Assembly: GCA_963665295.1 (NCBI GenBank) | Contig: OY762209.1 | Span: 1,184,001-1,248,000, forward strand | DNA from: Syntrophorhabdaceae bacterium | GTDB lineage: Bacteria > Desulfobacterota > Syntrophorhabdia > Syntrophorhabdales > Syntrophorhabdaceae | Length of the DNA: 64,000 bases | Direction: 5' to 3' | Shown here: positions 1-25,023 of the stretch, one piece after another | How positions within the stretch are numbered: position 1 is the first letter of the stretch | Layout: each line of letters starts with the position of its first letter | The notes under the pieces: model-generated | Database searches by the model: none | Seen by the model: the letters and a program-made list of their open reading frames with translations, nothing else | What the model was told of the DNA's origin: nothing | Program-made: the position numbers and the translations under genes

Positions 1-315
1 CATGAATACGCGGGGTTTGCAGTGCCGCTTCACTCTCCAGCATGCAATGCCGGCATAGCGGGAAACCATCTTCACGTCCATGAGGCTCCGCGCCATGTGA
101 TACGCAAGGGGGCTCAACGTGCCCTGTTTCACCTGGTCGAGGATTTCGGCAAGCTCCTGCTCCACCAGGTCCCATGCCTGCCGGTTGGCCCAATTCGCCG
201 GTTCCCATCCGGCGCTCGGAGTGAGCACATATTTCCCGTCCTCGTCAACGGCATAGTTGATGCCGTGCCACCGGCCGTATATGCCTTCGTCCTGGGGTAC
301 GTCCTTCTCTTTCAT
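1..315 (-). CDS. Conserved hypothetical protein (partial, runs off window edge), family recalled from flexirubin/DAR-type clusters
   Basis: Not in the ORF track. Manual translation from ATG 315: MKEKDVPQDEG..YAVDEDGKY..GWEP..SPLAYHM..WRVKRHCKPRVF. ATGA overlap with the upstream gene. Confidence 0.8.
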   Translation of the reverse strand, partial: MKEKDVPQDEGIYGRWHGINYAVDEDGKYVLTPSAGWEPANWANRQAWDLVEQELAEILDQVKQGTLSPLAYHMARSLMDVKMVSRYAGIACWRVKRHCKPRVFM

Positions 316-1169
316 TTCGTCGTTATCCTCCCGAAACCCTTCGGGAATGAATCTGTATCCTCCATCCTCCACGTTTGACCGGCCCCCGACCCCGTTCCTT
401 GGGGATATCCGAGGAGATAGGTAATCGGGACAGGCCCGTGGGGACACTTTATGGTCCCCGCCTCCCATGTGTAATTCTTATGGATGTCTCTCGTCAATTC
501 GCGAAGTTCCGAGGGGGAATAGGTGCGGAGGCAGGATATGAAGGAGTCGTAAAGCTGGGCCACCGGGGCAATGGGGATCAAATAGGTCCACATCAGCCTC
601 GACCACCGGAAAGGCCGGAGAAAGGGTACGCAAAACGGCATGATCAGGGAGATGACCATGAAAATAAACATGGTTCGGAAGGTCCGCTCCGTTATCTCGA
701 AAATGGCGATCCCCTGTTGACAATTCACCGCATCCCGGAGGATGGCGCGGGCTTCGGGGGGCTGAAAATGATGAAACGCCGCGCAAAGGGTCCTGAAGCC
801 GTTCAGGGCCTTGGGCACGTGTGCGGCGTCGACGGGCTCCGGAGAAAAGCCGAGCTTGCCCTCGGAATGGTCACAGGCGTACCGGAGGGCGGGGATGTTC
901 GGGTACTTGTCCGTGAGGCACACCTTGACGGGCGGCCTTGTGTCTTCGAAAGCCTTGACCATGCCGAGCCACGGCCCCCCGCTCCCTGAACACAGGTCGA
1001 CGACCTGATGCACCCCGAGACGGTCGAGGGCCTCTCTGAGGAGGGACGCTATGGCAATATCGGATTTCCACATGGTTACGCCGAATTGTATATAGTCCGT
1101 AACAGCCCCGCGAAGAGACTGGGGGCACCACTTTTTGTCGGTAATCTCGAAGAGGTGTAATCTGCGCAT
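312..1169 (-). CDS. Class I SAM-dependent methyltransferase
   Basis: VVDLCSGSGGP motif I, LTDKYP, AFHHF. Start re-assigned to ATG 1169 (TGATG coupling). Confidence 0.8.
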   Translation of the reverse strand: MRRLHLFEITDKKWCPQSLRGAVTDYIQFGVTMWKSDIAIASLLREALDRLGVHQVVDLCSGSGGPWLGMVKAFEDTRPPVKVCLTDKYPNIPALRYACDHSEGKLGFSPEPVDAAHVPKALNGFRTLCAAFHHFQPPEARAILRDAVNCQQGIAIFEITERTFRTMFIFMVISLIMPFCVPFLRPFRWSRLMWTYLIPIAPVAQLYDSFISCLRTYSPSELRELTRDIHKNYTWEAGTIKCPHGPVPITYLLGYPQGTGSGAGQTWRMEDTDSFPKGFGRITTK

Positions 1170-1765
1170 CAAAAGAAACGGCCTAATGTCAATGTGACGG
1201 AGTTGATGCCCGTATTGTCGTGGTTGAGTCCGCCGTTCGAGATATGGTGGAGCCTGAGACCGGCGAGGCACGTGGTGTCGGAACCCACCGTGAACTCGGT
1301 GCCGATACCTACCTGGGGGTTGAAATTGACCCGAAGCCCCTGCCCATCGACCTGAAAATCGGTATAGATCAGACCGATCCCTCCTTCGACGTAGGGCCGA
1401 AAGGTTTTGAATGCAAGCCTCTTGAGATAGTAGAGGGCAAATATGTTCGCCGAGGTCATGAGCTTCCTGTCGGGTCTCGTGGTGGTCCCGACGCTGGTCT
1501 CCACCTTGAACCGGAGCGGTTCAGGGGCCTTGTGACCCCAGACCGATTCGTAATCAAAGAGGGCGAAACCCGAGAGGAGCACAAAGGATATATCGTTTTC
1601 AGGGGTATAGCTGTTGCCCCCGGTTACGGCCATGCCGTAGCGGGTGGGCACATGCTTCGCTGCGGCATCTTCGGCCCGGACCTTTCCCGGAAGGAACGCC
1701 CCGGAAGAGAAGAACACCGCGCACATGAGAATGAGAATAATCCCGTCCTTCCTCAACACTGTCAT
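1169..1765 (-). CDS. PagL-like outer-membrane lipid deacylase (acyloxyacyl hydrolase family)
   Basis: Signal peptide; PYVEGGIG; FNPQVGIG; HHISNGG..NTGIN catalytic-type motif; C-terminal Phe. GGAG precedes ATG 1765. Confidence 0.8.
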   Translation of the reverse strand: MTVLRKDGIILILMCAVFFSSGAFLPGKVRAEDAAAKHVPTRYGMAVTGGNSYTPENDISFVLLSGFALFDYESVWGHKAPEPLRFKVETSVGTTTRPDRKLMTSANIFALYYLKRLAFKTFRPYVEGGIGLIYTDFQVDGQGLRVNFNPQVGIGTEFTVGSDTTCLAGLRLHHISNGGLNHDNTGINSVTLTLGRFF

Positions 1766-1772
1766 CACTCCT

Positions 1773-2876
1773 TTACGCGGCCCTCGGGGCAAGGGTGATC
1801 ATCCCCGTATCCGTTCCTCTGCCGAGTTTGAGGCAGCATATGGAATGTGCGCGAAGGTCCCGGGGGAGCGTGGAAATATTCATGAGGGGCGGAAGGGTGA
1901 TCCCGGCCGGAGGGGCATACAGCGTTCCCTCCCTGATGGATGCACATGCCGCCGCCATGTCGAAGGCCATATTTGTGGGAAAACTCCCGTAGACGGGCGC
2001 GTAGGACGTTACCTTCATCTCGTCCGTGATCAATTGTTTGTACCGCGAACCGGATTGGGCGTTTCCATCGGCCCCGAGGATAAACAGGGTTTGATCCGGC
2101 CGGGGAAGGGGGGCGCTGTCCCGGTATTCCGTAAGGGCCCCTGTGACACGACCGTAATCGTTCCCTGACCCGCCTGTGCGGGAAAGGAGAAAGAAGGCGG
2201 CCCCTTCCCCGATAACCGCCGTCTGCCGGTCGAAGAGGAAGGGTTCGGTCCCGGCATCGGACCGGTTCGGTCCGAAGAAACGATGCCAACAATATGCCCA
2301 CACGTCACAGTACTCGTCCACCGCGCCGAAGAGCACCCTTTCCACCCTTCCTTCCTGCAGCCAGTGAAGGGCGGTAATAAGCGCGGAGGGAACGGACATC
2401 TCGAACTGGCTCACCGTGAGGCACGGACCGGTTGCGCCGAGGAAGATGGAGACGTGCGCCGCAGCGGCATTGTGGACCGAGTTCGAAAAATGGGTGGGAG
2501 AGGAGTACGCGTCGTTGCCGTTGATAAACGAATCGAGAAAAGCAAAGGTCGTGGCGCCCGCGCCATATCCGCTCGCCACGACGATGCCGAGGCCCTTGCG
2601 GTCGATATCGAGCATTTGGGCGTCTTCCAGGGCGAGGTATGATGCGAGGACAGCCATTTTTGCATGATGGTCTATCCTTCGCAACGCCTTCTTCGGAACA
2701 TATATATCGAGACGCGCCGTGTCCGCGAGAAAGGCGGGCATTTCCCCGGTCCCTTCCCCTGTGTGAAAAGAAACGGACCGCACCCGCCTTGTTCCATGGG
2801 CGAGGGCTGCCGAGAATTCCTTAATGTCTGCGCCGAACCCCCCGACAATACCGATCCCTTCGACAAAAGCTTCCAT
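1773..2876 (-). CDS. Ketosynthase-like chain length factor (non-catalytic)
   Basis: KS N-terminal motifs (SPTHFSNSVHNAAA); catalytic Cys position reads TVSQFEMS; no HGT motif. Confidence 0.8.
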   Translation of the reverse strand: MEAFVEGIGIVGGFGADIKEFSAALAHGTRRVRSVSFHTGEGTGEMPAFLADTARLDIYVPKKALRRIDHHAKMAVLASYLALEDAQMLDIDRKGLGIVVASGYGAGATTFAFLDSFINGNDAYSSPTHFSNSVHNAAAAHVSIFLGATGPCLTVSQFEMSVPSALITALHWLQEGRVERVLFGAVDEYCDVWAYCWHRFFGPNRSDAGTEPFLFDRQTAVIGEGAAFFLLSRTGGSGNDYGRVTGALTEYRDSAPLPRPDQTLFILGADGNAQSGSRYKQLITDEMKVTSYAPVYGSFPTNMAFDMAAACASIREGTLYAPPAGITLPPLMNISTLPRDLRAHSICCLKLGRGTDTGMITLAPRAA

Positions 2877-2878
2877 AT

Positions 2879-4078
2879 TCAGTCCTCCCTCCTGCCCAGC
2901 ACCAGGACCCCGTTGCACCCGCCGAAGGCGAGAGATTGGGAGACGGCAGTGCCGCCTGTGATGGTAGTTGCGGCCGCTGACGGGGATACGGCCATCTCGG
3001 GATCGAGGTTCGCGAAGCCCGCATTGCCGGGTATCATGCCCTTTTCAAGGCACGCCACCGTAAAGGCAGCCTCGATGGCCCCGGCTGCTCCCAGGGTATG
3101 TCCCGTGTAGCCTTTTGTGGAGAAGAAGGGGACGCCGGGGAGTGTTTCTTTAAGCACCTTGCCCTCGATGCGGTCATTGTCGGGTGTCGCGGTGCCGTGG
3201 GCATTTACAAAGGCGATATCCGACGCTTCCCTGCGGGAGAGTCTGAGCGCTTCGAGAAGGGCCCGCTTCAATCCCTCGCCCTGAGGGTGGGGTGCGGTAA
3301 GGTGGTGGGCGTCGCTTGACGACGCATAGCCGAGAAAACGCGCCCGGGGGAGCCTTTCCCTTTTCCCGCACGAGTTTTCCGGCTCCAGTATGAGCACGGC
3401 TGCGCCCTCTCCCAGGTTAAGCCCTTTTCTGTCCCGGTCAAAGGGCTTGCAGGGGGTGTCATCGGTGATCATGAGGGAGATAAAGCCGTTATACGTTACA
3501 TGACAAAGCTCATCGGCTCCCCCTGCAATAACGATATCGCAGAGGCCCGATTGAATCCACGATGCCCCTATGCCCACGGCATCGGTGCCGGAGGAGCACG
3601 CGTTCACCACTGTCTGGCACGGCCCCGTAAGCTCGAACTCCCGGGCAATCAGGTCGGCGGGATTGCTCGTGATGAAGCGGGCAATGGGCGCCATATCGGG
3701 GCTACCCCCTTGGAGAAACTCTCCATAGAACATCTCGTTGTTCATTGCCACGCCCACCGTCGTGCCCAGGCACACCCCCACTTTTTTCCCCTTGAGGGCA
3801 ATGCGGTCGAGGCCTGCGTCGCTTATTGCCTCGTAAGCGGCGGCGAGGGCGAGCTTGCCCGTGAGGGAGATCTTCGTAGAGGCCATGATATGACCGGGGA
3901 TTGCGGCTTCAGGCACCTCGAACACAGGATAGGAGACGGGGTGGGTGCTTTGGAACCTCGTGGGCGGCGCAGGACTTCGCGTGCCCCTGAACAGGGAATT
4001 CATGCATTCCCCGAGCGTCCCTCCGGCTCCCGAGAGGCAACCCGCTCCGGTTATGTCGACAGGGACGGTTTTGTTCAC
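2879..4078 (-). CDS. Beta-ketoacyl-ACP synthase (FabF-like)
   Basis: NACSSG, NAHGT, KGYTGHTLGA, AFGG. GTG start overlaps the ACP stop. Confidence 0.92.
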   Translation of the reverse strand: MNKTVPVDITGAGCLSGAGGTLGECMNSLFRGTRSPAPPTRFQSTHPVSYPVFEVPEAAIPGHIMASTKISLTGKLALAAAYEAISDAGLDRIALKGKKVGVCLGTTVGVAMNNEMFYGEFLQGGSPDMAPIARFITSNPADLIAREFELTGPCQTVVNACSSGTDAVGIGASWIQSGLCDIVIAGGADELCHVTYNGFISLMITDDTPCKPFDRDRKGLNLGEGAAVLILEPENSCGKRERLPRARFLGYASSSDAHHLTAPHPQGEGLKRALLEALRLSRREASDIAFVNAHGTATPDNDRIEGKVLKETLPGVPFFSTKGYTGHTLGAAGAIEAAFTVACLEKGMIPGNAGFANLDPEMAVSPSAAATTITGGTAVSQSLAFGGCNGVLVLGRRED

Positions 4079-4329
4079 AGGGCTCTCCTTTCCTCGACAA
4101 AGGCGGCAAGGGTGTTGATGCATTGAAAGGCCTCACGCCCCTCGTCGATGTTTTTGACGGCGATCCCGAAATGTTTCTCAAGGAGGACGACCAGTTCCAC
4201 GGCGTCCAGGGAATCGAGACCGAGACCCTCCCCGAAAAGGGGTGTATCGTCTTCGATCTCTTCGGGTGTAACATCCTCCAGGTTAAGCTCTTCCACAAGA
4301 ATCTTCTTCAGTTGTTCCTTGATAGTCAT
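4075..4329 (-). CDS. Acyl carrier protein (aryl-polyene-type)
   Basis: PLFGEGLGLDSLDAVEL phosphopantetheine motif; acidic, 84 aa. Confidence 0.92.
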   Translation of the reverse strand: MTIKEQLKKILVEELNLEDVTPEEIEDDTPLFGEGLGLDSLDAVELVVLLEKHFGIAVKNIDEGREAFQCINTLAAFVEERRAL

Positions 4330-4349: not shown

Positions 4350-5294
4350 TCAATGGTCGGCGTTATCGAGCCTCCACATGTCGTAAAAATTATAGAACTG
4401 GTAGGGGTGTTCAGTTGTATAGGATTCAAGGGCCCGTGCGAACTGACCGACATAGGGGAGAAAATCCCTATTGCTCTTTCCTGCGTCGTGGGGTACGCGG
4501 ATCACCTTCGCAACCTCCAGGGTGTAGGTGGAGGGGCCCGACTTGTGGGAAAAGAAGACCACCACGGGCGCCCCTGTTGCCGAGGCTATCTTGAAGGCGC
4601 TGAAAGGGAAGAGAACCTTCCCTCCAAGGAAATCTACGGCGGCGGCCCCTTTCGAACTGCCGAAAAGCCTGTCTCCCATCACACAGAGGACCTCACCCCT
4701 CTTAAGCAGGCCCATCATCTCCAAAACGCCGCCCATGTAGCCCCTCGGGTCGATTATACCGTAAGGGCACGGAATCCCCGCGTGTTCAAAGTAGTGAAGG
4801 TCAATATCGCCCTCCTCGCGCTGCAGGAGGAGATGGACAGGCGCGTTGAGGAACCGCAGGGCCGACATGGCGGCCTGCCAGCATCCCACGTGGGCCGTCA
4901 TGAGGATCATGCCTTTGCCTTCGCGCATAATGTCGAATATCTCGTTCCTTTGTGCGAATTCCACGGTCATCTTCTCTTCGCCCAGGATGCCGGTCACTGC
5001 CCGGTCTATGAGCGCCTTCCCAAGGCTGAGAAATATGCGGTAACTGTCTCCGAGCCTTCCCGCCGTTCCCTTCCCCCTGAACCTCCGGGAGAGGTAATAG
5101 TCCGCCTTTCTTCGTATTGACGGCGCCAGGAAGACATAGAAGAGCACGACAAAGGAAAGAACGAAATATGCAAATCTTCGTCCCGCATACCTGATGAGGA
5201 GATAGAAGAACGTGTGGCCGAAGTGCGAACCGATGCTGCGGCTTGTCCATTGCCCTTCTCCCGCAGGGGTCGGTCCGGGGTCAGTCGTTTCCAT
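4350..5294 (-). CDS. LpxL/HtrB-like lipid acyltransferase
   Basis: N-terminal membrane anchor; TAHVGCWQ; VMGDR; VDFLG; HPYQFYNFYDMW C-terminus. Confidence 0.82.
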   Translation of the reverse strand: METTDPGPTPAGEGQWTSRSIGSHFGHTFFYLLIRYAGRRFAYFVLSFVVLFYVFLAPSIRRKADYYLSRRFRGKGTAGRLGDSYRIFLSLGKALIDRAVTGILGEEKMTVEFAQRNEIFDIMREGKGMILMTAHVGCWQAAMSALRFLNAPVHLLLQREEGDIDLHYFEHAGIPCPYGIIDPRGYMGGVLEMMGLLKRGEVLCVMGDRLFGSSKGAAAVDFLGGKVLFPFSAFKIASATGAPVVVFFSHKSGPSTYTLEVAKVIRVPHDAGKSNRDFLPYVGQFARALESYTTEHPYQFYNFYDMWRLDNADH

Positions 5295-6465
5295 GGGTTT
5301 CCCTTTTGAGGCATAGGGCGGTTACGTAAATGGCGGCTGCAGTAAGGATACCTATCACGGGTCCGAGAATGAGAGAGCCGAGGAACCACTCGAAAATCCT
5401 CTCAAGGGCCTGATACCCGAGGGTCTCCAAGGAGACTTCGGTGAGGAACCTGCCGTGGCGCATAAAGTATCCCGCTTCAATGCAGAGCGCGGGGACCAGC
5501 GGGGGTATGCAGATCTGGCCCGCGGCAAGGGCCATCAATTTGTTCAACCGGAAATAGTTCGCCGCGAAGAGGGTAGTGATGCTCTGGCACGCAATGAGGG
5601 GCAACGCTCCGATGAATACGCCGAGTCCCCCTGCCACGGCAAGCCTTTCCGGCGAGTTATTCCCTGTGAGCAGCAACCTAAGGGACTTGAGAGGCCTGAG
5701 GAGGGTGACCTTTTCCGTCTCCTTCCTTCCTGTCCTGAACCTTTTGTGCGGGTAAGGAGTAAGGGCCCTCAGGGTGAGCCTTGTATTGAGGATGCTGAGG
5801 CGGAGATTGTCCATAAAGAGACGGAAGTGGGACACACGCAGGGAAGAGGGGGGATAATATACGGATATATCGACCTCTTTCAGGATCACTCCCGCCCACA
5901 CGGCCTTCACGAGAACCTCCACCTCGAAGTCGTAGTGCCGCTCCCTCAGTTTCAGCCATTCAAGGAGGGCAAGGGGATAGGCGCGAAAGCCGCTCTGGGT
6001 ATCTTTCAGCTTATATCCCGTCTGGACCCTCAGCCAGAAGTTGGAGAAGGCCCGGCCGAACCGGGAAAGAAGGGGGGTGGTGGCCGAATCGAATGCCCGG
6101 GTGCCCACGATGATCGCATCGGGGTCTTCGTCGATCAAAGGGAGAAACCGGGGGTAGTCGGCGGGGTCATGCTGGCCGTCCGCGTCGATGGTCACTATGT
6201 GGGTTGCCCCTCTTGTGCGCGCTTCGTGGGCGGCGGTGATGATCGCGGCGCCCTTGCCCCTGTTCAGGGGGTGCCTTATTTCCGTTACGGGGAGTCCTGC
6301 GAGGGTCTCTGCGCCGCCGTCGGTGCTCCCGTCGTCAACAACTATCACATTATCGTTCACCGCGAGGGCCCGGACCACCACGTCCCTCAGAGTCTTCCCG
6401 TGGTTGTACACCGGGATGACAAGGAAGACCTTCGGCATTTCAGGGCTCTTTTTCTCCAAATTCAT
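5281..6465 (-). CDS. Glycosyltransferase family 2 fused to DUF2062-like membrane domain
   Basis: VIPVYN, VVDDGSTD, NRGKG, DADGQH, DTQSGFR; hydrophobic C-terminal domain. Confidence 0.88.
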   Translation of the reverse strand: MNLEKKSPEMPKVFLVIPVYNHGKTLRDVVVRALAVNDNVIVVDDGSTDGGAETLAGLPVTEIRHPLNRGKGAAIITAAHEARTRGATHIVTIDADGQHDPADYPRFLPLIDEDPDAIIVGTRAFDSATTPLLSRFGRAFSNFWLRVQTGYKLKDTQSGFRAYPLALLEWLKLRERHYDFEVEVLVKAVWAGVILKEVDISVYYPPSSLRVSHFRLFMDNLRLSILNTRLTLRALTPYPHKRFRTGRKETEKVTLLRPLKSLRLLLTGNNSPERLAVAGGLGVFIGALPLIACQSITTLFAANYFRLNKLMALAAGQICIPPLVPALCIEAGYFMRHGRFLTEVSLETLGYQALERIFEWFLGSLILGPVIGILTAAAIYVTALCLKRETHGND

Positions 6466-6474
6466 GGGCAGTCA

Positions 6475-7389
6475 TCATTCCTGGCGCGTAAGGAACTCAA
6501 GGATCTTTCTGTTTACCGTCTCCGGCTGCTCCACCGTAAGGCCATGACCGGCGTGGGGAATAATCTCCGTATCCATACGGGGCGCCACCCTGTTGAGACG
6601 CAGAACAGCCTTCCGGGCCGGATAGATCCTGTCGTTTTCACCGATCAGACAGAGCACGGGTATCCCGATGCTCCCCAATTCCTCGTCCGTGAGGACGGTC
6701 GGCCGCACAAAAGGCTTACGTGTGAAGCATTGCGAAGCGACGAACATGTCGTCCGCCGCATTCGTGAGCGCCGCCCGGTCGGCCGCGCCTCCGCGGGCGA
6801 GGTCGGCGAAGGCCCATCGCATGAAGCTCCTGGTAAAGGTGCGGCAGGGTAGTGTGGTGAGGACCGCCCGGAACATAAAGGCGACCCCCATGGGCAGCAC
6901 CGTGCACGCGGGTGCAAGGAGCACTGTCTTCGCAAGTCTGTGGGGAAAACGGAGGGTGTAGAGACATGCCAGCCAGCCCCCATAGGAGAGACCCATAAGA
7001 TTGATCGCGTCTTTGAGTTCAAGGACGCGAAACAGCTCGTCAAGCCAGCGCACAAAATCATCGGCGCCTTTGACGGCGCGGGTGTATACGCTTCGCCCGT
7101 AGTCATAGATGTTATCCACCGCATAGGTTCTGAAGGGCCCTGACAGGGCCTTTATGTTCGGGACCCACATGAGCGACGTGCTTCCTGCCCCGGGCAGCAA
7201 TACCAGGGGCGGCCCATGGGCAGGCCCGCTCACGCGTACGAATGTGGGGCCGTAAGACGTGTCCGCCGTTACAGCCTCGGAAGCGACGGGCCACTGTTTC
7301 GCCCTCCTCTCATAGAGGTCGAGGTACCGCTCTTTCGCCTGCGCCGACCGAAAAGGGTGATACGGGGGCAAGGGCCTTGCTTCAGCCAT
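6475..7389 (-). CDS. Alpha/beta hydrolase
   Basis: GLSYGG nucleophile elbow, GENDRI, AGHG. Confidence 0.88.
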   Translation of the reverse strand: MAEARPLPPYHPFRSAQAKERYLDLYERRAKQWPVASEAVTADTSYGPTFVRVSGPAHGPPLVLLPGAGSTSLMWVPNIKALSGPFRTYAVDNIYDYGRSVYTRAVKGADDFVRWLDELFRVLELKDAINLMGLSYGGWLACLYTLRFPHRLAKTVLLAPACTVLPMGVAFMFRAVLTTLPCRTFTRSFMRWAFADLARGGAADRAALTNAADDMFVASQCFTRKPFVRPTVLTDEELGSIGIPVLCLIGENDRIYPARKAVLRLNRVAPRMDTEIIPHAGHGLTVEQPETVNRKILEFLTRQE

Positions 7390-13795: not shown

Positions 13796-14206
13796 TTATG
13801 AAGTGGTGTCTAAATTTTCTATTGCGTCCTGTTCCGTGCGGCGTACGGTAAGGAGCAAAGAGGCGGCGAGGCTTTCAGCAACGGAAAGGGTTACCTCGAT
13901 GCCTGTCGCTCCCCTGACGGCACGCTCGCGATACCGCACCTCCACTTCCCGGTCGGGGTGGATTTCGGTGCGAAACTTGGCCTTGACAATGGAAACAAGT
14001 GTGAGCCCGCGCCCCTCAACCTCTTCCGCCATGGAAAGGGCGGTGAGCACCTGGAGAAACGCGGGAAGGACCGGGTAGCCGGGAAAGTGGCCCGAAAAGC
14101 CTATGAAATCAGGGGCAAAGGAATAGGACTTCACGAAAATGCCCCCTTCCGTCTCCTTTGCAGGGCCTATTGCCGATAAAGAAATGGCGGTCTTGAGTTT
14201 ATCCAT
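13796..14206 (-). CDS. 3-hydroxyacyl-ACP dehydratase (FabZ/ApeI-like)
   Basis: FSGHFPGYPVLP, AKF..IHP. Start set at ATG 14206. Confidence 0.82.
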   Translation of the reverse strand: MDKLKTAISLSAIGPAKETEGGIFVKSYSFAPDFIGFSGHFPGYPVLPAFLQVLTALSMAEEVEGRGLTLVSIVKAKFRTEIHPDREVEVRYRERAVRGATGIEVTLSVAESLAASLLLTVRRTEQDAIENLDTTS

Positions 14207-16607: not shown

Positions 16608-17269
16608 TACGGGTTAAACAGATCGTGAGGCAACGGTTCGTCCAGGAGGATGTGGGAAAATTTGATACGTACGTAATCCCCGCCTTTCTCGTGTATCTCC
16701 ACTGAACGGACGTGGGACCAATCCTTGGAAAAGGCAATGATGAGGTGGGAGACATACTTTTTTTCCTGGGAGGAAAGGGGATTGAGTTTCAGGGCCGTCG
16801 GCCTGTCTTCCGCCACGGTAATCCTGTACCTCTTTTCGAGCCAGGGGAAATCCGCCCGTGCCCATGCAAATACCTGCTCCACAATGGCCTTTGCCACGGG
16901 CTCCTTCTGTACGTCAAATGTCTCTGCCTTATTGACGTCTCCCTCCCACCGCTTTGCCCTGGTTCCTCGTACCACAAATCCCGCGGGAGACGGTTTTGTG
17001 ATCTCCCAGTAAAGACGATCCGGTTTCTCGTATGCAAACCGTCCGCTCGAAACGAGGGGGTCTTTCAGCATGGACGAATACTTTTCCTGGGTAAAGCCGC
17101 TTGAGATGGTCCGGAGGGCTGTTGCTGCGGCGGCAATACGGGAGAAGGCCTCCGATCTCACGTCCCGCTTCTCCGGCTCATCTTTTGGTTCCGCCGCGAA
17201 TCCGAGGGCCGCCCAAAGGAGCATAGGGATGATAAGGGAAGAGAGATAAAGAAATGTCCTCCTGGTCAT
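16607..17269 (-). CDS. LolA-like periplasmic carrier protein
   Basis: Signal peptide; FTQEK..SSGRFAYEKPDRLYWE; EKGGD. Confidence 0.85.
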   Translation of the reverse strand: MTRRTFLYLSSLIIPMLLWAALGFAAEPKDEPEKRDVRSEAFSRIAAAATALRTISSGFTQEKYSSMLKDPLVSSGRFAYEKPDRLYWEITKPSPAGFVVRGTRAKRWEGDVNKAETFDVQKEPVAKAIVEQVFAWARADFPWLEKRYRITVAEDRPTALKLNPLSSQEKKYVSHLIIAFSKDWSHVRSVEIHEKGGDYVRIKFSHILLDEPLPHDLFNP

Positions 17270-17712
17270 TGTGCCTCCCTGGGAACCCAGACCATGACGC
17301 TTCCGGAGGCTATTGCCTCTCCTTCCCGCATTACCGTGCCTTCTGCCAGGGCAAATTCGTCCATGTCCCCTGTCTTCCTTATGATGATCGACAATTTGTC
17401 GCCCCCGTGAGCGGTTCCGAACAACTCGAACCTTTTCACCTCCACGAGAAAACCTTTCGCCACCGCTCCCCCTTCCGTGAGGTCCTCATACCCTTTGACT
17501 GCCGCAAAGGATTGAGCGATAAGCTCGACAAACACGGTGGGCTCGACTGAACCGTCATTTCGAAGGAAGATGCTGTCCGGCCTTATGGTCGACTCCGCCA
17601 CGCCGCCGTGGCCCGCCCGGAACCCGGTCAAGCGGTCGATTGCGAGCATAGGCGGCCTCTGAGGCAGCAGCTTCGCGGCTGCGACAGGGAGATCGAGGGG
17701 ATGTCCGCTCAC
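17266..17712 (-). CDS. Hot-dog dehydratase (ApeP-like)
   Basis: LLPQRPPMLAIDRL, ELIAQS, GFLV. Confidence 0.8.
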   Translation of the reverse strand: MSGHPLDLPVAAAKLLPQRPPMLAIDRLTGFRAGHGGVAESTIRPDSIFLRNDGSVEPTVFVELIAQSFAAVKGYEDLTEGGAVAKGFLVEVKRFELFGTAHGGDKLSIIIRKTGDMDEFALAEGTVMREGEAIASGSVMVWVPREAQ

Positions 17713-18488
17713 AACCCCCTCATGGCTGTCACGGTTTCCGTCATGATGGCTTTTGTATGTTTTCCCATCTTGATATGGGCAAGAGGCTCGTCAAAGTCTT
17801 TCGGGTCAACAGGGGGAAGCACGGTGATACACACCCTGGCAGGCAGCATCCACCATCTCCCCGGCGGCAGCAGCACATCGGTGCCCGTGAGACAGAGGGG
17901 GAGAATTTTCGTGCCTGTCCGCAATGAAAGCTTGAATGCCCCCGAAAAGAAGCGCTGCATCTTTCCGTCCTTGCTTCTGTGCCCCTCGGGAAAAAACAGG
18001 ACCGACCCGCCTTCCGAGAGTATTCCGGCGCCCTTTTCGAGATATCCGGCGGCGCCGAGTGATTCCACGTTGAGGTAACCGGCAAGCCGCATGAACGGCG
18101 CATACCACGGCATCTTGAAGGGCCATGCGCGCACGGCCGCGGCGACATTGGTGAAGGGAAGCAAACCCATGCAGTAGAAATCAAAGAAAGAGAAATGGTT
18201 TATCACCATGACGTAAGGAGGCCCGATCACAACCTTCTCAAAGCCCCTTCTCTTGAACCTCACGAAGGGCGACGTTATGGCGACCCACCCTTTTCCGTAA
18301 AACCAGATAAAAAGGCGCATAATGCGGCCGCTACCCCAGTTTGTAAAGATCTTCCAGAAACCGAAAAGAAAAGGCATGGCCACGATCCCCAGCAAGGTCC
18401 AGAGGATAATCATGGGATAGACAAAGAGATTCATGGGGACAGACCAGAGAAGGGAGATGATACCCGGTTTCCTTACCGCCCGCCCCAC
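17709..18488 (-). CDS. Lysophospholipid acyltransferase (PlsC-like)
   Basis: NHFSFFD (HX4D), FFPEGHRS. Confidence 0.88.
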   Translation of the reverse strand: MGRAVRKPGIISLLWSVPMNLFVYPMIILWTLLGIVAMPFLFGFWKIFTNWGSGRIMRLFIWFYGKGWVAITSPFVRFKRRGFEKVVIGPPYVMVINHFSFFDFYCMGLLPFTNVAAAVRAWPFKMPWYAPFMRLAGYLNVESLGAAGYLEKGAGILSEGGSVLFFPEGHRSKDGKMQRFFSGAFKLSLRTGTKILPLCLTGTDVLLPPGRWWMLPARVCITVLPPVDPKDFDEPLAHIKMGKHTKAIMTETVTAMRGL

Positions 18489-18494: not shown

Positions 18495-18776
18495 TCAGTC
18501 CTTAAGCGGTGCGCCCTGGGTCGATTCCAGGCCCTTCATCTTGTTGATCACGAACCGGTGAATGTCGCCAAGGGTAATGATCTCCCGGATCGCCCCCTCG
18601 TCCCGTATCTTGAATTTGAAGGCGTTCTCCAGCAGAATCACTGTATCCACCCTGTCCAGACTGTCCAGCCCAAGATCGTCATAGAGGTGAGCCTCGGGAA
18701 CCATCTTCTCCGGATCGAGTTCGAACTCTTCGGCAAGCGAGGCGTTTATCACCTCGATTATCTTCTCGTCGGTCAT
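18495..18776 (-). CDS. Acyl carrier protein
   Basis: LYDDLGLDSLDRVD. Confidence 0.92.
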   Translation of the reverse strand: MTDEKIIEVINASLAEEFELDPEKMVPEAHLYDDLGLDSLDRVDTVILLENAFKFKIRDEGAIREIITLGDIHRFVINKMKGLESTQGAPLKD

Positions 18777-18777: not shown

Positions 18778-19998
18778 TCAATACCTCCTCAACACAGTGC
18801 ACGTGTTCACGCCGCCCAAGGCGAAATTATTTTTGATTGCTGTCTCTATGGGGGACTCCTCAACCTTGAAGATATGGGCAAGGTTTTCGCACAAGGGGTC
18901 GACGTTCTCCAGGTTGCGGGTGGGTATCAGGCAATTCCGGTTCATCATTCCGATTGTGGCGATGGCCTCCAAGGCCCCCGATGCCGCCATTGTATGTCCA
19001 AGGTGTCCCTTCAGACTGCTCACCCGCGCTTTACTGCCGAAAATTCTTCTTATGGCCTCGCCCTCCGAGATGTCCCCCAGGGTTGTGCCCGTGGCATGGG
19101 CATTCACATAGTCCACATCCCCGGGTTCAACGCCCGCGTCCAGAAGGGCCTGCCGGATACACGACTCTATGGAATCCGAGTGCGGATCGGCGATGTTGGC
19201 AGGGTCGGACACGGTGGCGAACCCGATCACTTCCGCGAGGATGGGAACGCCGCGGCTGAGCGCCGACTCCAGGGATTCCAGAAGGATAATGCCGGAGCCT
19301 TCAGCACAGACCACGCCGTCCCGGTTGAGGTCAAAAGGACGGGGCGTCATGTGGGGCCGGTCGTTATAGCTTGTTGACCCCGCATTGATAATGTCGAATG
19401 TAGCCGCTGAAAGGGGGTGAAACTCATCGGCCCCTCCGCAGAGCATGAAGTCCTGTTTTCCGAAGGCGATCATCTCATACCCGTACCCTATGGCCTGGTT
19501 TCCCGTTGAACAGGCCGACGACGGGGCGAACATCCTGCCTGTTATGCCCAGGACCTGAGCGACATTGGAAGCGCAGGAATGGTTCATGATCTGAAAGAAG
19601 AAGGTGGCCCGGGTGTTTTCGATAGTATTGCCGGGAATGAACTCCTTGTAGAAATCATGGGTAGCAATCGGGCTGCCCACGGTGGAGCCTATACAAAGTC
19701 CCATCCGGCCGCCCGAACAGTCCTGGCCGGTGATACGACCCGCGGCGCACGCCTCCCGGGCGGCCAAGGTGGCGTAAATGGACATATTCGACATGGAACG
19801 TCTGAACTTGCGGGGTATTTCCTTTGGATCTACACCGGTCACCAGCGCCGCTACCCTTGATCTCATGCCTCCTATGTGAGCGAGTTCCGGGACGGCCGTT
19901 ACGGCGCTTTTGCCTGCCATGAGCGCATCCATGAGCCCGTCGACGCCTACTCCAAAGGGCGATACGGAACCCATCCCGGTCACCACAACTCTTCTCAT
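18778..19998 (-). CDS. Beta-ketoacyl-ACP synthase
   Basis: MRRVVVTGMG, SSACSTG, NAHATGT, KGHLGHTMA, NNFALGG. ATGA coupling at 19995-19998. Confidence 0.92.
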   Translation of the reverse strand: MRRVVVTGMGSVSPFGVGVDGLMDALMAGKSAVTAVPELAHIGGMRSRVAALVTGVDPKEIPRKFRRSMSNMSIYATLAAREACAAGRITGQDCSGGRMGLCIGSTVGSPIATHDFYKEFIPGNTIENTRATFFFQIMNHSCASNVAQVLGITGRMFAPSSACSTGNQAIGYGYEMIAFGKQDFMLCGGADEFHPLSAATFDIINAGSTSYNDRPHMTPRPFDLNRDGVVCAEGSGIILLESLESALSRGVPILAEVIGFATVSDPANIADPHSDSIESCIRQALLDAGVEPGDVDYVNAHATGTTLGDISEGEAIRRIFGSKARVSSLKGHLGHTMAASGALEAIATIGMMNRNCLIPTRNLENVDPLCENLAHIFKVEESPIETAIKNNFALGGVNTCTVLRRY

Positions 19999-21482
19999 GC
20001 CCATCTTCTTATCTCCTCCATGAGTTTTTCGTGTCCAAAAATACTCCCGCACGCAAGGAACCCGGAGACCACGGCACCCATGATGCCCGGGGCAGTGATT
20101 GCCTGTCCTGCAAGGAAGAGGTTCCTTATCTTCGTCACGGGCATAGGGTTATACTGGTCAACCTTGTGTTTTACCCCATAGATGCTCCCCACGGGACTAT
20201 GGGTGTATCTCTTCAGGGTCAGCGGCGTCCCGCACTCCACGTGGGTTATCCTGTTTCTGAATTCCGGGGCCGAGGTTTCGAGGTGCGCAAGCATTCTCCC
20301 GGTCATGTCATCCTTATAGGATTTGTAGGCTTCTGAATCGTCTTCAGGGACGGAAGCCGACCAGTGTTCCGTTCCCATGTTCGGTTCCGGGCAGATAATG
20401 ATATATCCTTCCCGGGAAGTCGTGCCCCCATCCTGGGGCGCATGGGTTATAAAGAGCGGTCTTCCCTCCACGGGGCCGTTACCTTGAGGAATCGTAAGGC
20501 GGGGGGAAGGAAAGAGGAGGAGGTTTGTCCTGTCGAGGCCTTGCAAAGGACGATCGGTTTCCACATAGAGTATGATTGCCGAACCGGTATCTTCAAGGGT
20601 CTCAAGCCGTTTCCTGTAGATGGGGCGGAAGGCCGGACCGGGGACAAGCGGCAGGAGTTGCCGGGGATGTATGGTGGAGACACACCTCTCGCAGTGCAGG
20701 ACCTCATCATCACCAAAACGAAGGCCCGATACGGAGCGGTCCCCGGAAAGGATGATCTCTTTCACCTCCGAACCGGAGAAGACATCGACCCCCAACTCGG
20801 AGAGACGGGCATCGAAAGCCTCCGAGAGGCTTAAACCCCCGCCTTTTATGCCGTTGGCCGATTCATAATAAGATCCCGCAACGCAGGCATGACAGAGAAA
20901 AGAGACCTCCTCCGGATATACCCCATGAAGCAGGCAATGCATGGAAAGGATGCACTTGAGCATCTCATTGTCCGTTATCCTGTCGAGGAACTCCTTGAGA
21001 CTTTGCCCCTGTGCGGGGGGGAATCCCTGCATATCCACGCCGGCGTTGAGGTCGATGTAGGGCTGACACCGGTACGTATGCCTTACTGCCTCAAGGTAGA
21101 CGTCGATAGCCCGGACATCTCCCGGAAATGTCTCATGAAGCCTCTCGCGGATACGGTCATACCCGTAGGGAAAGGAGAATTCGAAGTGAGGATCGAGACA
21201 GCGGAAAGCATCGAACCCATCTTCATGAAAGGGGTATTTCTGTATTTTGCCGGACAGTCCAAGGTACCGGAAGAGGACGTCCAAGGGTTCTCCATCATTC
21301 AGGCCCCCCGTATAGTGAAAGCCCGTGTCGAAAAAAAGGCCTCTTCGGCTGAACCCCCTGATGGTGGGGGCCGTGGTGCGCCCTGTCTCCAGGAGGGCGG
21401 TGCGGTAGCCCGCTTTTGCCATGATAATGGCGGTGGTCATTCCGGATACGCCGCCGCCGATAACCGCACATCCGTAATTCAT
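19995..21482 (-). CDS. CrtI/retinol-saturase-like FAD oxidoreductase
   Basis: VIGGGVSG Rossmann motif, FDTGFHYTG, GTPLT, GSIYG, NLFLAGQ..PGIMG. Confidence 0.88.
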   Translation of the reverse strand: MNYGCAVIGGGVSGMTTAIIMAKAGYRTALLETGRTTAPTIRGFSRRGLFFDTGFHYTGGLNDGEPLDVLFRYLGLSGKIQKYPFHEDGFDAFRCLDPHFEFSFPYGYDRIRERLHETFPGDVRAIDVYLEAVRHTYRCQPYIDLNAGVDMQGFPPAQGQSLKEFLDRITDNEMLKCILSMHCLLHGVYPEEVSFLCHACVAGSYYESANGIKGGGLSLSEAFDARLSELGVDVFSGSEVKEIILSGDRSVSGLRFGDDEVLHCERCVSTIHPRQLLPLVPGPAFRPIYRKRLETLEDTGSAIILYVETDRPLQGLDRTNLLLFPSPRLTIPQGNGPVEGRPLFITHAPQDGGTTSREGYIIICPEPNMGTEHWSASVPEDDSEAYKSYKDDMTGRMLAHLETSAPEFRNRITHVECGTPLTLKRYTHSPVGSIYGVKHKVDQYNPMPVTKIRNLFLAGQAITAPGIMGAVVSGFLACGSIFGHEKLMEEIRRWA

Positions 21483-22699
21483 GAGCCGAATCTCAGGATC
21501 AGGCAGGAGTTGGTGCCGCCGAACCCCGCGGAATTGCACAAAACCAGACGGGGCGGCCGGGAAACGGCCTCTCGCACGATATTCAGCCTTTCCGTGTATC
21601 GGTCGGGTTTTTCAAAATTGATGTTGGGCGCGATAAAACCGTGCTCGGCCATGATCGCCGAATAGACTACCTGGGAAGCGCCGGACATCCATAACTCGTG
21701 ACCTGTCATCGATTTTGTGGAAGAGACCAGGGGTCCTTCATCGCCGAAGACGGAAAGGATGCACGCTGCTTCAGCGGCATCCCCCAGGGGGGTCGAGGTG
21801 GCATGGGCACAGATATAGTCTATCTCGGAGGGTTTTACCCGGGCGCTGCTCAGCCCTCTTTGCATGGCGGCCGCAATGCCTTCTTCACTCGGAACCGAGA
21901 TGTTGTTTCCATCCGAAGAAAAGGCGTAGGAGAGGATTTCGCCGAGAATTCTTGCCCCTCTTTTCTCCGCCAGATCGTATCGCTCGAGTATGACTGCGGC
22001 GGCCCCTCCGCTTGGGACCAGACCGTCCCGGCTTTCGTCAAAGGGCCTGCAGGCGGCTTCGGGGTTGTCGATCCTTGTGGAAAAGGCGTTGATTCCATCG
22101 AAGCTGCACATGGACTCCCAACTGATCTCCTGGGCTCCCCCGCAAATTATTCGTTCCTGTCGTCCCAGGGCAATCAAGTCCGATGCCTGCCCCACTGCAT
22201 GACCTCCGCTGGAACACGCGGAGCTGATGGACCAGCACGCGCCCTTCGTTTTCAAAAGGGTATTCAGATTCATGGTTATTGTGGAGGTCATGGAGCGGAA
22301 GATAAGACCGCTGCCGATGCCCTTCGTATCTCCCTGGTCAAGGACGATTCTTGCCTGCTCGATGGCGGCTACACAGCTTGAGTCGCACCCGAAGATCAGG
22401 CCTGTTTCTCCATTCTGAATTTCCTCCGGGGCCAAACCGGACATGGCCAGGGCGTCCATTGCGGCGGTGTAGGTCTGGACCGCGAAGTCGGGCATGGTTT
22501 TGAGTTGTTTCCTTGAGAGACTGCGATGGGGGGCAAAGCCCTTTATCGCCCCTGTCAGGGGACTGCGAAACCCCAGTTCCCTTCTCTTTTCGTCGATAAC
22601 GATGCCGGATTTTCCCTGCCGAAGCGACATGCCGACAGTTTCTGAATCCGTGCCGAGACAGGAGATAATGCCGATGCCGGTTATGGCTACCCTGAACAT
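21479..22699 (-). CDS. Beta-ketoacyl-ACP synthase (FabB-like)
   Basis: SSACSSG, CAHATST, TKSMTGHELWM, NSAGFGG. Confidence 0.92.
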   Translation of the reverse strand: MFRVAITGIGIISCLGTDSETVGMSLRQGKSGIVIDEKRRELGFRSPLTGAIKGFAPHRSLSRKQLKTMPDFAVQTYTAAMDALAMSGLAPEEIQNGETGLIFGCDSSCVAAIEQARIVLDQGDTKGIGSGLIFRSMTSTITMNLNTLLKTKGACWSISSACSSGGHAVGQASDLIALGRQERIICGGAQEISWESMCSFDGINAFSTRIDNPEAACRPFDESRDGLVPSGGAAAVILERYDLAEKRGARILGEILSYAFSSDGNNISVPSEEGIAAAMQRGLSSARVKPSEIDYICAHATSTPLGDAAEAACILSVFGDEGPLVSSTKSMTGHELWMSGASQVVYSAIMAEHGFIAPNINFEKPDRYTERLNIVREAVSRPPRLVLCNSAGFGGTNSCLILRFGS

Positions 22700-22801: not shown

Positions 22802-23692
22802 TCATGGAAGGGCCCCGGCCAAGGGGAGGGAGGAGCCCGACGTGCCGGCCGCATAGGCGAGGAAGGAACGGTATGCGGTCTTCAGGGGGGCAAATTTGAA
22901 CTGTCGCGCGAGGTGTGACAGGTGGTGCTTGTATATACCGAAGTAGATCCCGTAAAAAGCGGCGCAGACCGAGCTGTATTTCCATGGATGCCTGTTGATC
23001 CCTTGAGGATGGATCTCAAAAGGGTGACAATAATAATTGAAGGGCATGCCCTTTCGGTTCAACCGCCGGTAATGGCGGATCTGGATAGCTATGGGCACGT
23101 AGGCGCAGAAAAGTCCTCCGTTAAAAGGAAAGTCACGCCCGAGCAGCCTGCGCGAGGTTACGGGAATGACAGCGAGAGAATCCTTGTACACGAAGGGGGT
23201 CATGTCTTCCGGACACCGCCCCAGGAACTTCAACAACGATGGCTGGGCGGTATTATCGACACGGTAACCCGCGGAGATGAGCTCATCGTAGGCCCAGGGC
23301 GTACGGGGCGTGATACCCCACTCAGGCGCCTTGTACGTGTCTACCTCCACGGAGAGGATATCCTCGAGCATCTTTTTGCTTATGAGGGCGTCCTCGCGAA
23401 AACCTTCCCTCTTTAACCGTTCGGGCACCATATGGGTGCAGCCGTGGGAGCCCACTTCATGACCGGCCCGGCCAATCTCCCTCACGAGGCGGGGGAAGCG
23501 CCGGGCCACATACCCCGGGACGAACATGGTGGCCCTGATACCCATCTCCGCCAATGATTCCAGCAGGGCGTAGGTCTCTTTCTCCACGAGGTCCCCGGAG
23601 GGCAGACATGTCCCGTTCCTCATATTGAGGCCATACGCCAGGTCATCGATGTCGAAACATAACGCGTTTACCAGATCAGGGATAGAGGCCAC
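22802..23692 (-). CDS. Polysaccharide deacetylase family protein (DUF3473-like C-terminus)
   Basis: FDIDD, ATMFV, GHEVGSHGCTH, YKAP, YYCHPFEI. Confidence 0.82.
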   Translation of the reverse strand: MASIPDLVNALCFDIDDLAYGLNMRNGTCLPSGDLVEKETYALLESLAEMGIRATMFVPGYVARRFPRLVREIGRAGHEVGSHGCTHMVPERLKREGFREDALISKKMLEDILSVEVDTYKAPEWGITPRTPWAYDELISAGYRVDNTAQPSLLKFLGRCPEDMTPFVYKDSLAVIPVTSRRLLGRDFPFNGGLFCAYVPIAIQIRHYRRLNRKGMPFNYYCHPFEIHPQGINRHPWKYSSVCAAFYGIYFGIYKHHLSHLARQFKFAPLKTAYRSFLAYAAGTSGSSLPLAGALP

Positions 23693-23695
23693 CTC

Positions 23696-24424
23696 TCACC
23701 GGTACGCGCCGCCGTTCACGGAGATGACCTGACCCGTGATGTACGAGGCCCGCTCCGAGCAAAGGAAGCTCACCACCCCTGCCACCTCCATGGGCGTCCC
23801 ATAACGGCCCATGGGGATCATGGGCAGGACCTTGTCCTTGGGAAGGTCTTTTACCATTTCAGTATCTATGAAGCCGGGCGAGACTGCGTTGACAAGGACG
23901 TTCCGTCTTGCCACTTCCACGGCCAGGGCTTTCGTGGCACCTATAAGGCCTGCTTTTGCAGCGGCGTAATTTGTCTGACCCGCAACCCCGCTCTGTCCCG
24001 AGGTCGAGACAATGTTGATGATACGGCCCTCTCTTTTTCTGAGCATGTTGTTTATGACGGGCTTGGTTATGTGAAAGAAACCGCCGAGGCTGACGGAGAG
24101 GACATCGTCCCATTCCTCCTGTGTCATCCAGGCGAGGATCACATCCTTGCTGAAGCCTGCGTTATTGATAAGGGCATAAGGCGTTTCTTTCTCCAACAGG
24201 GGCAGAAGGTGCGCCTCGACGCCCTTCGGATCGGACACGTCGAAGGGGAGCAAAGTGCACCTCCGCCCTGCCTGCTCCACCGATCGCGCCACATTTGATG
24301 CCCCCTCGTGGTCGCTCCTGTAGTTCAGCCAGATGTCAAAACCGTCGCCGGCGAGGGCCGACGCCATCGCCGCCCCGATCCCTTTGCTTCCGCCCGTTAT
24401 CAATGCTATTCTGCCGGATGCCAT
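23696..24424 (-). CDS. fabG: 3-oxoacyl-ACP reductase
   Basis: TGGSKGIG, NNAG, NYAAAK, PGFIDT. Confidence 0.93.
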   Translation of the reverse strand: MASGRIALITGGSKGIGAAMASALAGDGFDIWLNYRSDHEGASNVARSVEQAGRRCTLLPFDVSDPKGVEAHLLPLLEKETPYALINNAGFSKDVILAWMTQEEWDDVLSVSLGGFFHITKPVINNMLRKREGRIINIVSTSGQSGVAGQTNYAAAKAGLIGATKALAVEVARRNVLVNAVSPGFIDTEMVKDLPKDKVLPMIPMGRYGTPMEVAGVVSFLCSERASYITGQVISVNGGAYR

Positions 24425-24444
24425 GTCCTTGTCCTGCGGGCTGT

Positions 24445-25023
24445 CTAGTCGATGATTTTGACTACTTTCCCTTTTGAATTGAATTCAACGGCGATGGACT
24501 TCCACCTGTTTGTCCAGTAATACCAGGTATTGCTGTCAAGGGAAGGGGTCTTGTGTACGGCAGGATAACCGAGGGCGATTCTCACCCCTTCTTTTGTCAT
24601 GCCCGTGTGCGCCTTTCCTTCCTTAATGCCCTTGAGGTCGATATGTGAGAAGCCGTTAAGGCTTACGGGCTGAGTCGATGTGATGACATTGATGTACTGC
24701 TCGTTGGTCATGCCCATTCTTTCTTCATCAAATTCAAAATTGATGGTTTGGTTGGTGTCCAGGGTTTCAATGGTCAGGTCCCTTCTCGAGGTCCATATCG
24801 ATACGGGCGTATTTACGGGGATTATTACATGTCCTGCGCCGGGGTCGGTCCAGTTTGAATAGGCTGCCCTTATTTCCTTCGGTTGCTTTTCAGCGTGGAT
24901 GTTATTCTTAAGGAACCTGGGGGCAACCTTGTCACCGTAATGAGTCGAACCGCCGCACCCGGCGAGACCCACAAGGAATAGACAACAGAGAATAAGGCAT
25001 ATGATTGTTTTGTGTGTGTGCAT
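24445..25023 (-). CDS. Hypothetical lipoprotein, first gene of the cluster
   Basis: Lipobox LAGC; GMTKEGVRIALGYP..WYYW (SmpA/BamE-like C-terminus); AGGAGG RBS. Confidence 0.8.
   Translation of the reverse strand: MHTHKTIICLILCCLFLVGLAGCGGSTHYGDKVAPRFLKNNIHAEKQPKEIRAAYSNWTDPGAGHVIIPVNTPVSIWTSRRDLTIETLDTNQTINFEFDEERMGMTNEQYINVITSTQPVSLNGFSHIDLKGIKEGKAHTGMTKEGVRIALGYPAVHKTPSLDSNTWYYWTNRWKSIAVEFNSKGKVVKIID

Follow-up and report, generated by a model that had tools for sequence, protein, structure and literature searches.

A B12-domain radical SAM gene in the darA position beside a 'ladderane-type' lipid cluster of a Syntrophorhabdaceae bacterium

Introduction

The question raised by this locus is which enzyme serves the ring-forming ketosynthase (KS) DarB when its usual partner, the aromatase DarA, is absent, and what kind of lipid the surrounding genes would build. 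The DNA analyzed is a stretch of 64,000 nucleotides from a Syntrophorhabdaceae bacterium (contig OY762209.1, positions 1,184,001 to 1,248,000; hereafter the window). It opens with an operon whose core encodes a fatty acid synthase of type II (FAS II) of the kind catalogued as 'ladderane-type', and a dar module of the flexirubin kind extends beyond its left edge. Characterized DarB pathways employ DarA (PMC6836626, PMC13748660, PMC13192835). Here, the position directly upstream of darB is held by rSAM4, a gene for a B12-binding radical S-adenosylmethionine (SAM) enzyme. The cluster type is already known and the exchange of darA for rSAM4 is the new element; no description of this exchange was found in the literature searched, in which most subscription journals were not covered.

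Distribution of darA and rSAM4

The host genome, 98% complete, is assembled as a single 5.5-Mb contig and carries the cluster once. The gene rSAM4 (432 aa; G000:C1:1178032-1179330, plus strand, left of the window) encodes the Pfam B12-binding and Radical_SAM domains and is followed by darB (G000:C1:1179311-1180495, plus strand, left of the window), the product of which is assigned to the StlD/DarB ring-forming ketosynthases by NF005293 (550 bits, cut-off 450). No DarA was found in the host genome (best E 0.043).

For the distribution of these genes, 401 genomes (400 drawn from the phylum, and the host) were searched for darB, DarA and rSAM4; the DarA profile was built from 14 of the genes found, of the family that the sources name DarA. 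A darB gene is present in 35 of the genomes, full-length DarA in 18 with a contig-end fragment in one more, and rSAM4 orthologues (at least 52% identity, well separated from a sister family at 34-40%) in 16, in all 16 directly upstream of darB. The 35 darB genomes thus divide into 19 with darA and 16 with rSAM4, none having both and none having neither; in the 366 genomes that lack darB, neither DarA nor rSAM4 was found. Named species with rSAM4 orthologues are Geoalkalibacter halelectricus and Desulfuromonas versatilis. The host also encodes a B12-radical SAM protein of the sister family (36% to rSAM4; G000:C1:990557-992185), outside any KS cluster seen. A Cloacimonadales record (L058) has rSAM4-darB near the housekeeping genes plsX-fabH-fabD-fabG-fabF, with no core cluster in the 21 kb covered.

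Further rSAM4 loci (n=99) comprised 19 genome loci and 80 metagenome loci, the latter being the best of at least 128 that were confirmed; a few of the loci are near-duplicates or come from genomes already counted. A downstream darB was present in all 93 loci with room for it (91 within 700 bases and two farther away; the remaining six end too soon), and darA in none of the 99. Full-length DarA was likewise not found in 19 further genomes, of which 18 are rSAM4 carriers and many are incomplete.

A distant DarA acting in trans was considered and rejected. Fifteen weak matches (E 1e-15 to 1e-23) were set aside as belonging to a flavodoxin-like family of shorter proteins; 11 come from genomes that lack darB, and the four in rSAM4 genomes occupy unrelated sites. 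One further weak match of this kind occurred among the 19 further genomes and none in the host. This shorter DarA-like family (about 230 aa) is found in genomes with and without darB (L130:18345-19055; L155:3537-4214; L156; L157).

The genes darG and darH, an acyl carrier protein (ACP) gene and ATP-binding cassette (ABC) transporter genes accompany both darA-type and rSAM4-type loci, and the core with three radical SAM genes occurs with darA (G083, G117) as well as with rSAM4 (G287, G331, G420, G216). The gene rSAM4 holds the slot of darA upstream of darB, and its product likely replaces this ring-aromatizing enzyme. By hhalign, rSAM4 and DarA show no relationship (probability 0.2), a result that lowers the case that rSAM4 is a DarA and not the case that it works like one.

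The darA/rSAM4 label changes once (support 99/95) on an unrooted DarB tree of 47 rows, in which G350, whose DarB is partial, was not included; this rules out many independent swaps and points to one evolutionary event. The rSAM4 proteins form a clade of their own (support 100), and their tree distances follow those of DarB (rho 0.66, with 0 of 2000 permutations as high, and 12 of 26 splits shared), an agreement that kinship alone could partly explain.

Properties of DarB and rSAM4

DarB matches the structure of StlD (5gk0, E 1e-121); the protein scores under the cut-off of the narrower model NF053539 (453 vs 550 bits). The Cys, His and Asn residues are kept in all full alignment rows and the fourth site is Glu or Asp (Asp in the host). 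No alignment column is diagnostic of darA-type or rSAM4-type DarB, and, since the active site is also kept, DarB probably still makes a carboxy-cyclohexanedione. Carboxy-cyclohexanediones are the substrate of DarA, and CO2 is lost in the aromatization (PMC6836626, citing Mori et al.).

An N-terminal B12-binding domain and the CxxxCxxC motif place rSAM4 among the class B radical SAM proteins, and cobalamin binding is predicted. Cobalamin synthesis genes (cbiL, cbiF, cbiG-like and cbiH; G000:C1:1144081-1147035, L244) lie left of the window, at a distance of about 36-40 kb. The GEGE and RGC motifs are replaced in 36 of 36 rSAM4 rows and kept in 14 of 14 sister-family rows, with G[LI]G[KR] in the orthologues where the sister family has GEGE, and an extra cysteine, Cys11, is invariant (30/30; L001:4032-5330). 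The loss of the two motifs hints at a changed chemistry in rSAM4 and is not diagnostic of one. A promoter and terminator scan around rSAM4-darB gave signal at shuffle level.

Organization of the cluster

The original prediction, made from the window alone, described 27 co-oriented genes with about 15 overlapping junctions over at least 25 kb. Gene calls and Pfam/NCBIfam searches of the window recovered all 27 genes, co-oriented on the minus strand at 1..25023, and 15 of the 26 junctions overlap by 1-14 bases when plausible start codons are used; the junction from the LpxL-like gene to ACP2 may be one additional overlap. The predicted extent held for a real cluster and stopped short at the left end, where about 6 kb with the dar module and a fourth B12-radical SAM gene had been missed. 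There, the operon continues through the end of darG, darH, an ABC pair and a third ACP gene, and meets the converging plus-strand two-gene unit rSAM4-darB. With these six genes beyond the window-edge darG, the cluster comprises 33 genes in about 31 kb.

TIGR04072, the B12-radical SAM family of 'ladderane-type' lipid clusters, was over its cut-off in six of 40 relatives searched, and the regions of those six were compared: the core has nearly the same gene order in all six, and the dar module adjoins it in five. The core was also found in other families; given this recurrence, the grouping of its genes is not due to chance. The nearest named relatives carry the titles Syntrophorhabdaceae, Syntrophorhabdus or Syntrophus. 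In one relative (G003), NAD-dependent epimerase-like, serine-palmitoyltransferase-like and GNAT genes are inserted in the cluster (L048:10402-14511), and in many relatives an FlxY-like CoA ligase gene and a SPASM-type radical SAM gene follow plsC (L056:7408-9788, L110, L113); neither is present in the host genome.

The following genes are on the minus strand unless stated otherwise. For chain building, the cluster encodes four ketosynthases with an intact Cys-His-His motif, KS_a (2879..4078; best PDB match 9s5h_B), KS_b (12192..13325; Pfam), KS_c (18778..20004; Pfam/NCBIfam) and KS_d (21479..22699; Pfam/NCBIfam), and two KS-like proteins of the chain-length-factor (CLF) kind without the catalytic triad, CLF_a (1773..2876; best PDB match 9s5h_C) and the short CLF_b (247 aa; 11455..12198; Pfam and motif check). 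This set had been predicted, and the motif check bore it out; a quick tree, the proposed phylogenetic check, places the four KS in separate lineages that are each conserved across the phylum. A separate, ordinary FabF-like gene is located elsewhere in the host genome. Further components are ACP1 (18495..18776; PF00550), ACP2 (4075..4329; PF00550, LGLDSLD), a FabG-type ketoreductase (23696..24424; over the cut-off of FabG NF004200; best NCBIfam match FlxB at 302 bits, under its cut-off of 340), a hot-dog thioesterase (13322..13783; PF13279), and two FabA/Z-type dehydratases, DH1 (FabZ-like; 17266..17712; NF000582) and DH2 (FabA/Z-like; 13796..14206; PF07977 and NF000582). The dehydratases had been claimed without reserve; family matches are present for both, at weak scores (E about 2e-4 and 3e-5).

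Putative tailoring enzymes are rSAM1 (10193..11458; B12-binding and DUF4070, with CxxxCxxC invariant in 25 of 25 homologues), rSAM2 (8832..10196; TIGR04072), rSAM3 (7382..8827; Pfam/NCBIfam), and a CrtI/CrtD-like FAD oxidoreductase (19995..21482; PF01593; TIGR02733 at 99 bits, far under the cut-off). A second CrtI-like FAD oxidoreductase gene (25485..27158, plus strand; Pfam/NCBIfam) diverges from the operon and is a probable accessory member of the cluster: its homologue adjoins the cluster in G001 (81%), lies inside it in L070 (77%), and is found beside or inside it also in L165. The methyltransferase of the original prediction is a putative accessory class I SAM methyltransferase (312..1169), for which a DLCSGSGG motif and an Atlas lead of 0.89 speak; it has no Pfam, NCBIfam or PDB match. 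PDB searches with KS_b, this methyltransferase and DarA returned nothing specific.

For attachment and export, the window encodes a PlsC-like acyltransferase (17709..18488; PF01553, NHxxxxD), an LpxL-like acyltransferase (4350..5294; PF03279), a glycosyltransferase of family 2 (GT2) with DUF2062 (5281..6465; PF00535 and PF09835), an MMPL/RND exporter (14199..16607; PF03176), a LolA-like carrier (16607..17269; PF03548; NF053544 at 92 bits, under the cut-off of 125) and a PagL-family outer-membrane beta-barrel protein with an HxSNG motif (1169..1765; PF09411, 74 bits). Together with the ACPs, FabG, the thioesterase, the three radical SAM proteins and the FAD oxidoreductase, these assignments of the original prediction are supported by Pfam and NCBIfam. 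Its gene list had left four genes unnamed: an accessory alpha/beta hydrolase (6475..7389; PF12697, GxSxG), which lies within the cluster only in relatives of the same genus, a polysaccharide deacetylase with DUF3473 (22802..23692; PF01522 and PF11959), a lipoprotein with a BamE-like domain encoded by the first gene of the operon (24445..25023; PF04355), and the window-edge darG-family gene (1..315 plus 78 bases beyond the edge; NF053536 at 143 bits, cut-off 70). To the left of the window follow, on the minus strand, darH for a BtrH-related acyltransferase (G000:C1:1182909-1183922; NF053550 DarH at 470 bits, cut-off 300) and, down to position 1180482, the genes for an ABC ATPase, an ABC permease and the third ACP (ABC and ACP family matches; junction spacing).

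Comparison with known clusters

The core belongs, by its predicted gene content, to the catalogued 'ladderane-type' islands: a TIGR04072 protein (rSAM2; 633 bits, cut-off 360) is encoded inside a KS/ACP cluster, together with a phytoene-desaturase-like FAD enzyme and non-canonical FabF paralogues. The predicted likeness to islands of anammox bacteria and deltaproteobacteria was therefore right (PMC2649909), and the accompanying suggestion of an undescribed system does not hold for the type, which was described in 2009 and has a curated hidden Markov model that is over its cut-off in 88 of the 401 phylum genomes. A distant TIGR04072-like paralogue (30%) is encoded elsewhere in the host genome (G000:C1 293172-294593), outside any KS cluster seen.

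Such islands were described in Kuenenia, Desulfotalea, Geobacter and Pelobacter (PMC2649909, Rattray et al.). Desulfotalea psychrophila has a syntenic island, yet no ladderanes were detected in it (PMC2649909), no CrtI activity was found for the desaturase-like Kuenenia genes (PMC4790861), expressed 'ladderane' clusters without assigned function are reported in Desulfobacterota by a metagenome study (PMC9902471), and the ring-forming enzymes of ladderanes are still unknown according to a 2026 review (PMC13459092). In common with the island of Kuenenia (kuste3335-3352; PMC2649909, PMC4790861), the cluster has KS and non-canonical KS genes, two ACPs, FabG, a FabZ-like enzyme, a phytoene-desaturase-like enzyme, radical SAM genes, a glycosyltransferase, a polysaccharide deacetylase and a lipoprotein. 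By the published gene lists, four KS and two CLF-like genes here compare with two and one in Kuenenia, and the four B12-radical SAM genes and the dar module, which is unlisted for Kuenenia, also set the cluster apart. The phenylacetyl-CoA-ligase-like gene of the Kuenenia and Desulfotalea clusters has no counterpart in this cluster and is optional in its relatives.

The predicted likeness of the backbone to aryl-polyene and flexirubin clusters also proved correct, both the toolkit and the dar genes being shared. The Azoarcus dar cassette (PMC3949708) matches in kind and partly in order (darB, a conserved hypothetical gene, a BtrH-like gene, an ABC pair and an ACP gene), and as in flexirubin and arcuflavin clusters (Chitinophaga and Flavobacterium, PMC3992019; Azoarcus), DarB is accompanied by DarG-family and BtrH-like DarH genes with the ABC pair and the ACP, and by the KS set, dehydratases, a deacetylase, an acyltransferase, a glycosyltransferase, LolA and an exporter. 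In contrast to the accessible descriptions of those clusters, darA is missing here with rSAM4 in its slot, there is no ammonia-lyase or aryl-CoA ligase gene, and four B12-radical SAM genes and a PagL-like gene are present. The host genome has no match for ammonia-lyase (PF00221) or UbiC-type chorismate lyase (PF04345), with XanB2-type chorismatase not searched, and its best match to the FlxY-type ligase (NF053551) scores 197 bits against a cut-off of 520. Six PaaK-like CoA ligases, distant matches, are encoded elsewhere in the genome. An FlxY-like ligase occurs in 8 of the 35 darB genomes and sits inside the cluster in some relatives. A dedicated aryl acid starter is therefore doubtful in the host.

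With the aryl-polyene lipid (APEL) clusters of Xenorhabdus and E. coli (apeA-R; bioRxiv 2020.12.19.423268), the cluster shares two ACPs, KS/CLF, ketoreductase and dehydratase genes, a glycerol-phosphate acyltransferase, a glycosyl/acyltransferase, an RND-type exporter and a LolA-like carrier, a gene set for making a glyco-phospholipid that bears two polyketide chains; the correspondence is one of gene family and not of orthology to ape genes. Unlike APEL clusters, it lacks a starter ligase and has extra KS pairs, radical SAM genes, the FAD oxidoreductase and the dar module. The DarAB, StlCD and BrtCD pathways (PMC6836626, PMC13748660) share the DarB family and its catalytic Cys/His/Asn with this locus, and differ from it in their flavodoxin-like aromatase, absent here, where an unrelated radical SAM gene holds the slot. 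DarA-less DarB clades are reported for cyanobacteria, where they are described as divergent; the accessible text names no partner of the radical SAM kind for them (PMC6836626, PMC13748660).

Proposed pathway and alternatives

That a resorcinol or cyclohexanedione ring is part of the chemistry of this cluster is suggested by its dar genes (darB, darG and darH) and by rSAM4. An envelope lipid altered by radical chemistry, which the original prediction had put forward as a methylated or cyclized polyene (glyco)lipid, stays the best inference; the ring module was missed in it. In the reading favored here, rSAM4 is a ring aromatase and the cluster makes a linked polyene-type envelope lipid of the aryl-polyene/flexirubin family. 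We hold this combination, every chemical step of which is deduced from gene content, to be evenly balanced between right and wrong.

In this pathway, the four KS, their two CLF-like partners, FabG and the two dehydratases would extend chains on ACP1 and ACP2, and these chains are probably polyenes because no enoyl reductase is encoded. The enzymes rSAM1-3 and the FAD enzyme may methylate, cross-link or reduce the ACP-bound chains. Attachment of chains to a glyco(phospho)lipid, in the manner of aryl-polyene lipids, would fall to the PlsC-like, LpxL-like and GT2 enzymes. DarB would join a beta-keto and an enoyl chain to give a carboxy-cyclohexanedione, and rSAM4 would take the ring hydrogen beta to the carboxylate, so that oxidative decarboxylation would yield a dialkylresorcinol. 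Comparable radical chemistry is carried out by HemN, where a hydrogen beta to a carboxylate is abstracted and the radical is oxidized. DarH would ester-link a chain to the ring, as in flexirubin, and transport to the outer membrane would be the task of MMPL, LolA and the ABC pair. In the host, chain building probably starts from something other than a dedicated aryl acid.

Several observations weigh against this reading. The partition of the 35 genomes represents, judged from the DarB tree, one old event followed by long co-inheritance and not many independent cases. Heme-copper oxidases (a family that includes NO reductases) are encoded in 10 of 16 rSAM4 genomes and 9 of 19 DarA genomes (p 0.5); the swap thus does not track oxygen respiration, and these counts lend no support to anoxia as its reason, with rSAM4 as an oxygen-free substitute. 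Among named families, the one nearest to rSAM4 is a methylase (HpnR), and the rSAM4 fold matches methylases and non-methylases alike. The host lacks the ammonia-lyase, FlxY-type ligase and UbiC-type lyase, unlike flexirubin and arcuflavin producers. The dar module is dispensable, 8 of the 29 genomes with the closest TIGR04072 subtype having no darB match, and rSAM4-darB is also seen with no core in its vicinity. Furthermore, E. coli that expressed the related Kuenenia genes made no new fatty acids, the proteins being poorly soluble (PMC4790861, Javidpour et al.).

The main rival is ring methylation. As a cobalamin-dependent C-methylase, rSAM4 would methylate the DarB ring at an unactivated carbon and block its aromatization, darA would become useless and be lost, and the head group would be a methylated cyclohexanedione. 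This alternative explains the either-or pattern of darA and rSAM4 equally well, a further point against aromatization, and needs no oxygen link. The best NCBIfam match of rSAM4 is HpnR (hopanoid C-3 methylase, TIGR04367), though at 200 bits it remains far under the cut-off of 650, and the Atlas neighbors of rSAM4 include 'hopanoid C-3 methylase family' clusters. The top fold matches of the rSAM4 model (pLDDT 84.5) are the methylases TsrM and MgmA; however, OxsB, AprD4, CysS and TokK match about equally, with the non-methylases OxsB and AprD4 among them, and thus the fold does not decide the chemistry. The loss of GEGE and RGC is specific to the rSAM4 orthologues, which argues against a methylase, and the retention of darG, darH, ACP and ABC genes with both kinds of locus fits a common acceptor. 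We regard ring methylation as rather unlikely.

A second alternative divides the locus into two neighboring pathways, with the core making a membrane acyl chain that is not a polyene and contains rings or branches, by chemistry like that proposed for ladderanes, and the dar module a free alkyl-resorcinol or cyclohexanedione. The cores without darB just mentioned would be accounted for, as would the 6 of 35 darB genomes without a TIGR04072 match; rSAM4-darB is on the opposite strand to the core in the host, three radical SAM enzymes exceed the needs of a polyene, and a single PDB entry, 9s5h, whose source was not confirmed, provides both best matches, one chain for KS_a and the other for CLF_a. 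Against this division, darB is found in 21 of the 29 genomes with the closest TIGR04072 subtype, compared with 8 of the 69 that have distant subtypes and 6 of the 303 that lack the family; the core operon runs on through darG, darH, the ABC genes and ACP3, with junctions that overlap; and the absence of detected ladderanes in D. psychrophila speaks against ladderane-like chains. In four core-bearing genomes that lack the dar module, which were checked for rSAM4, it was not found either. Two separate pathways appear improbable.

Least of all do we expect an ordinary aryl-polyene/flexirubin pigment with an aryl starter from host aromatic metabolism and radical SAM genes that just add ring methyls: gene kinds shared with flexirubin clusters (PMC3992019, PMC3949708), the PaaK-like ligases of the host and the FlxY-like ligases of some relatives would allow it, but darA, an ammonia-lyase and an FlxY orthologue are missing from the host, the flexirubin-specific models FlxB, LolA2 and DarG score under their cut-offs, and the accessible gene lists of characterized clusters name no radical SAM enzyme, which makes it very improbable.

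Neighboring genome regions

On its left, the cluster is bordered by a putative clustered regularly interspaced short palindromic repeats (CRISPR) array with cas3/cas5/cas8/cas7/cas4/cas1/cas2-like genes (G000:C1 ~1161600-1176900), which we take to be of type I-C from the translations. On its right, the window contains housekeeping genes at 31645-35428 and 43912-57441 (groEL, groES, dnaJ, five tRNAs, tuf, ribosomal protein genes, rpoB and rpoC).

Implications

Anaerobes commonly carry clusters of this type, which are routinely labelled 'ladderane' and have no known product. As the chemistry of DarB is known, the dar module is a chemical handle on them, one that allows the partner enzyme to be assayed with a small substrate of defined structure. 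The wider claim, that rSAM4 represents a class of B12-domain radical SAM aromatases and that 'ladderane-type' clusters of Desulfobacterota make radical-tailored polyene-resorcinol or polyene-glycolipid envelope pigments, seems to us possible and somewhat more doubtful than true. If it is true, a new enzyme class would convert carboxy-cyclohexanediones into resorcinols, and darB with rSAM4 would open a cluster family that has been unassigned since 2009. Whether rSAM4 is a radical aromatase or a ring methylase, its reaction would be new among lipid modifications by radical SAM enzymes, and the head group of the lipid would be defined by it.

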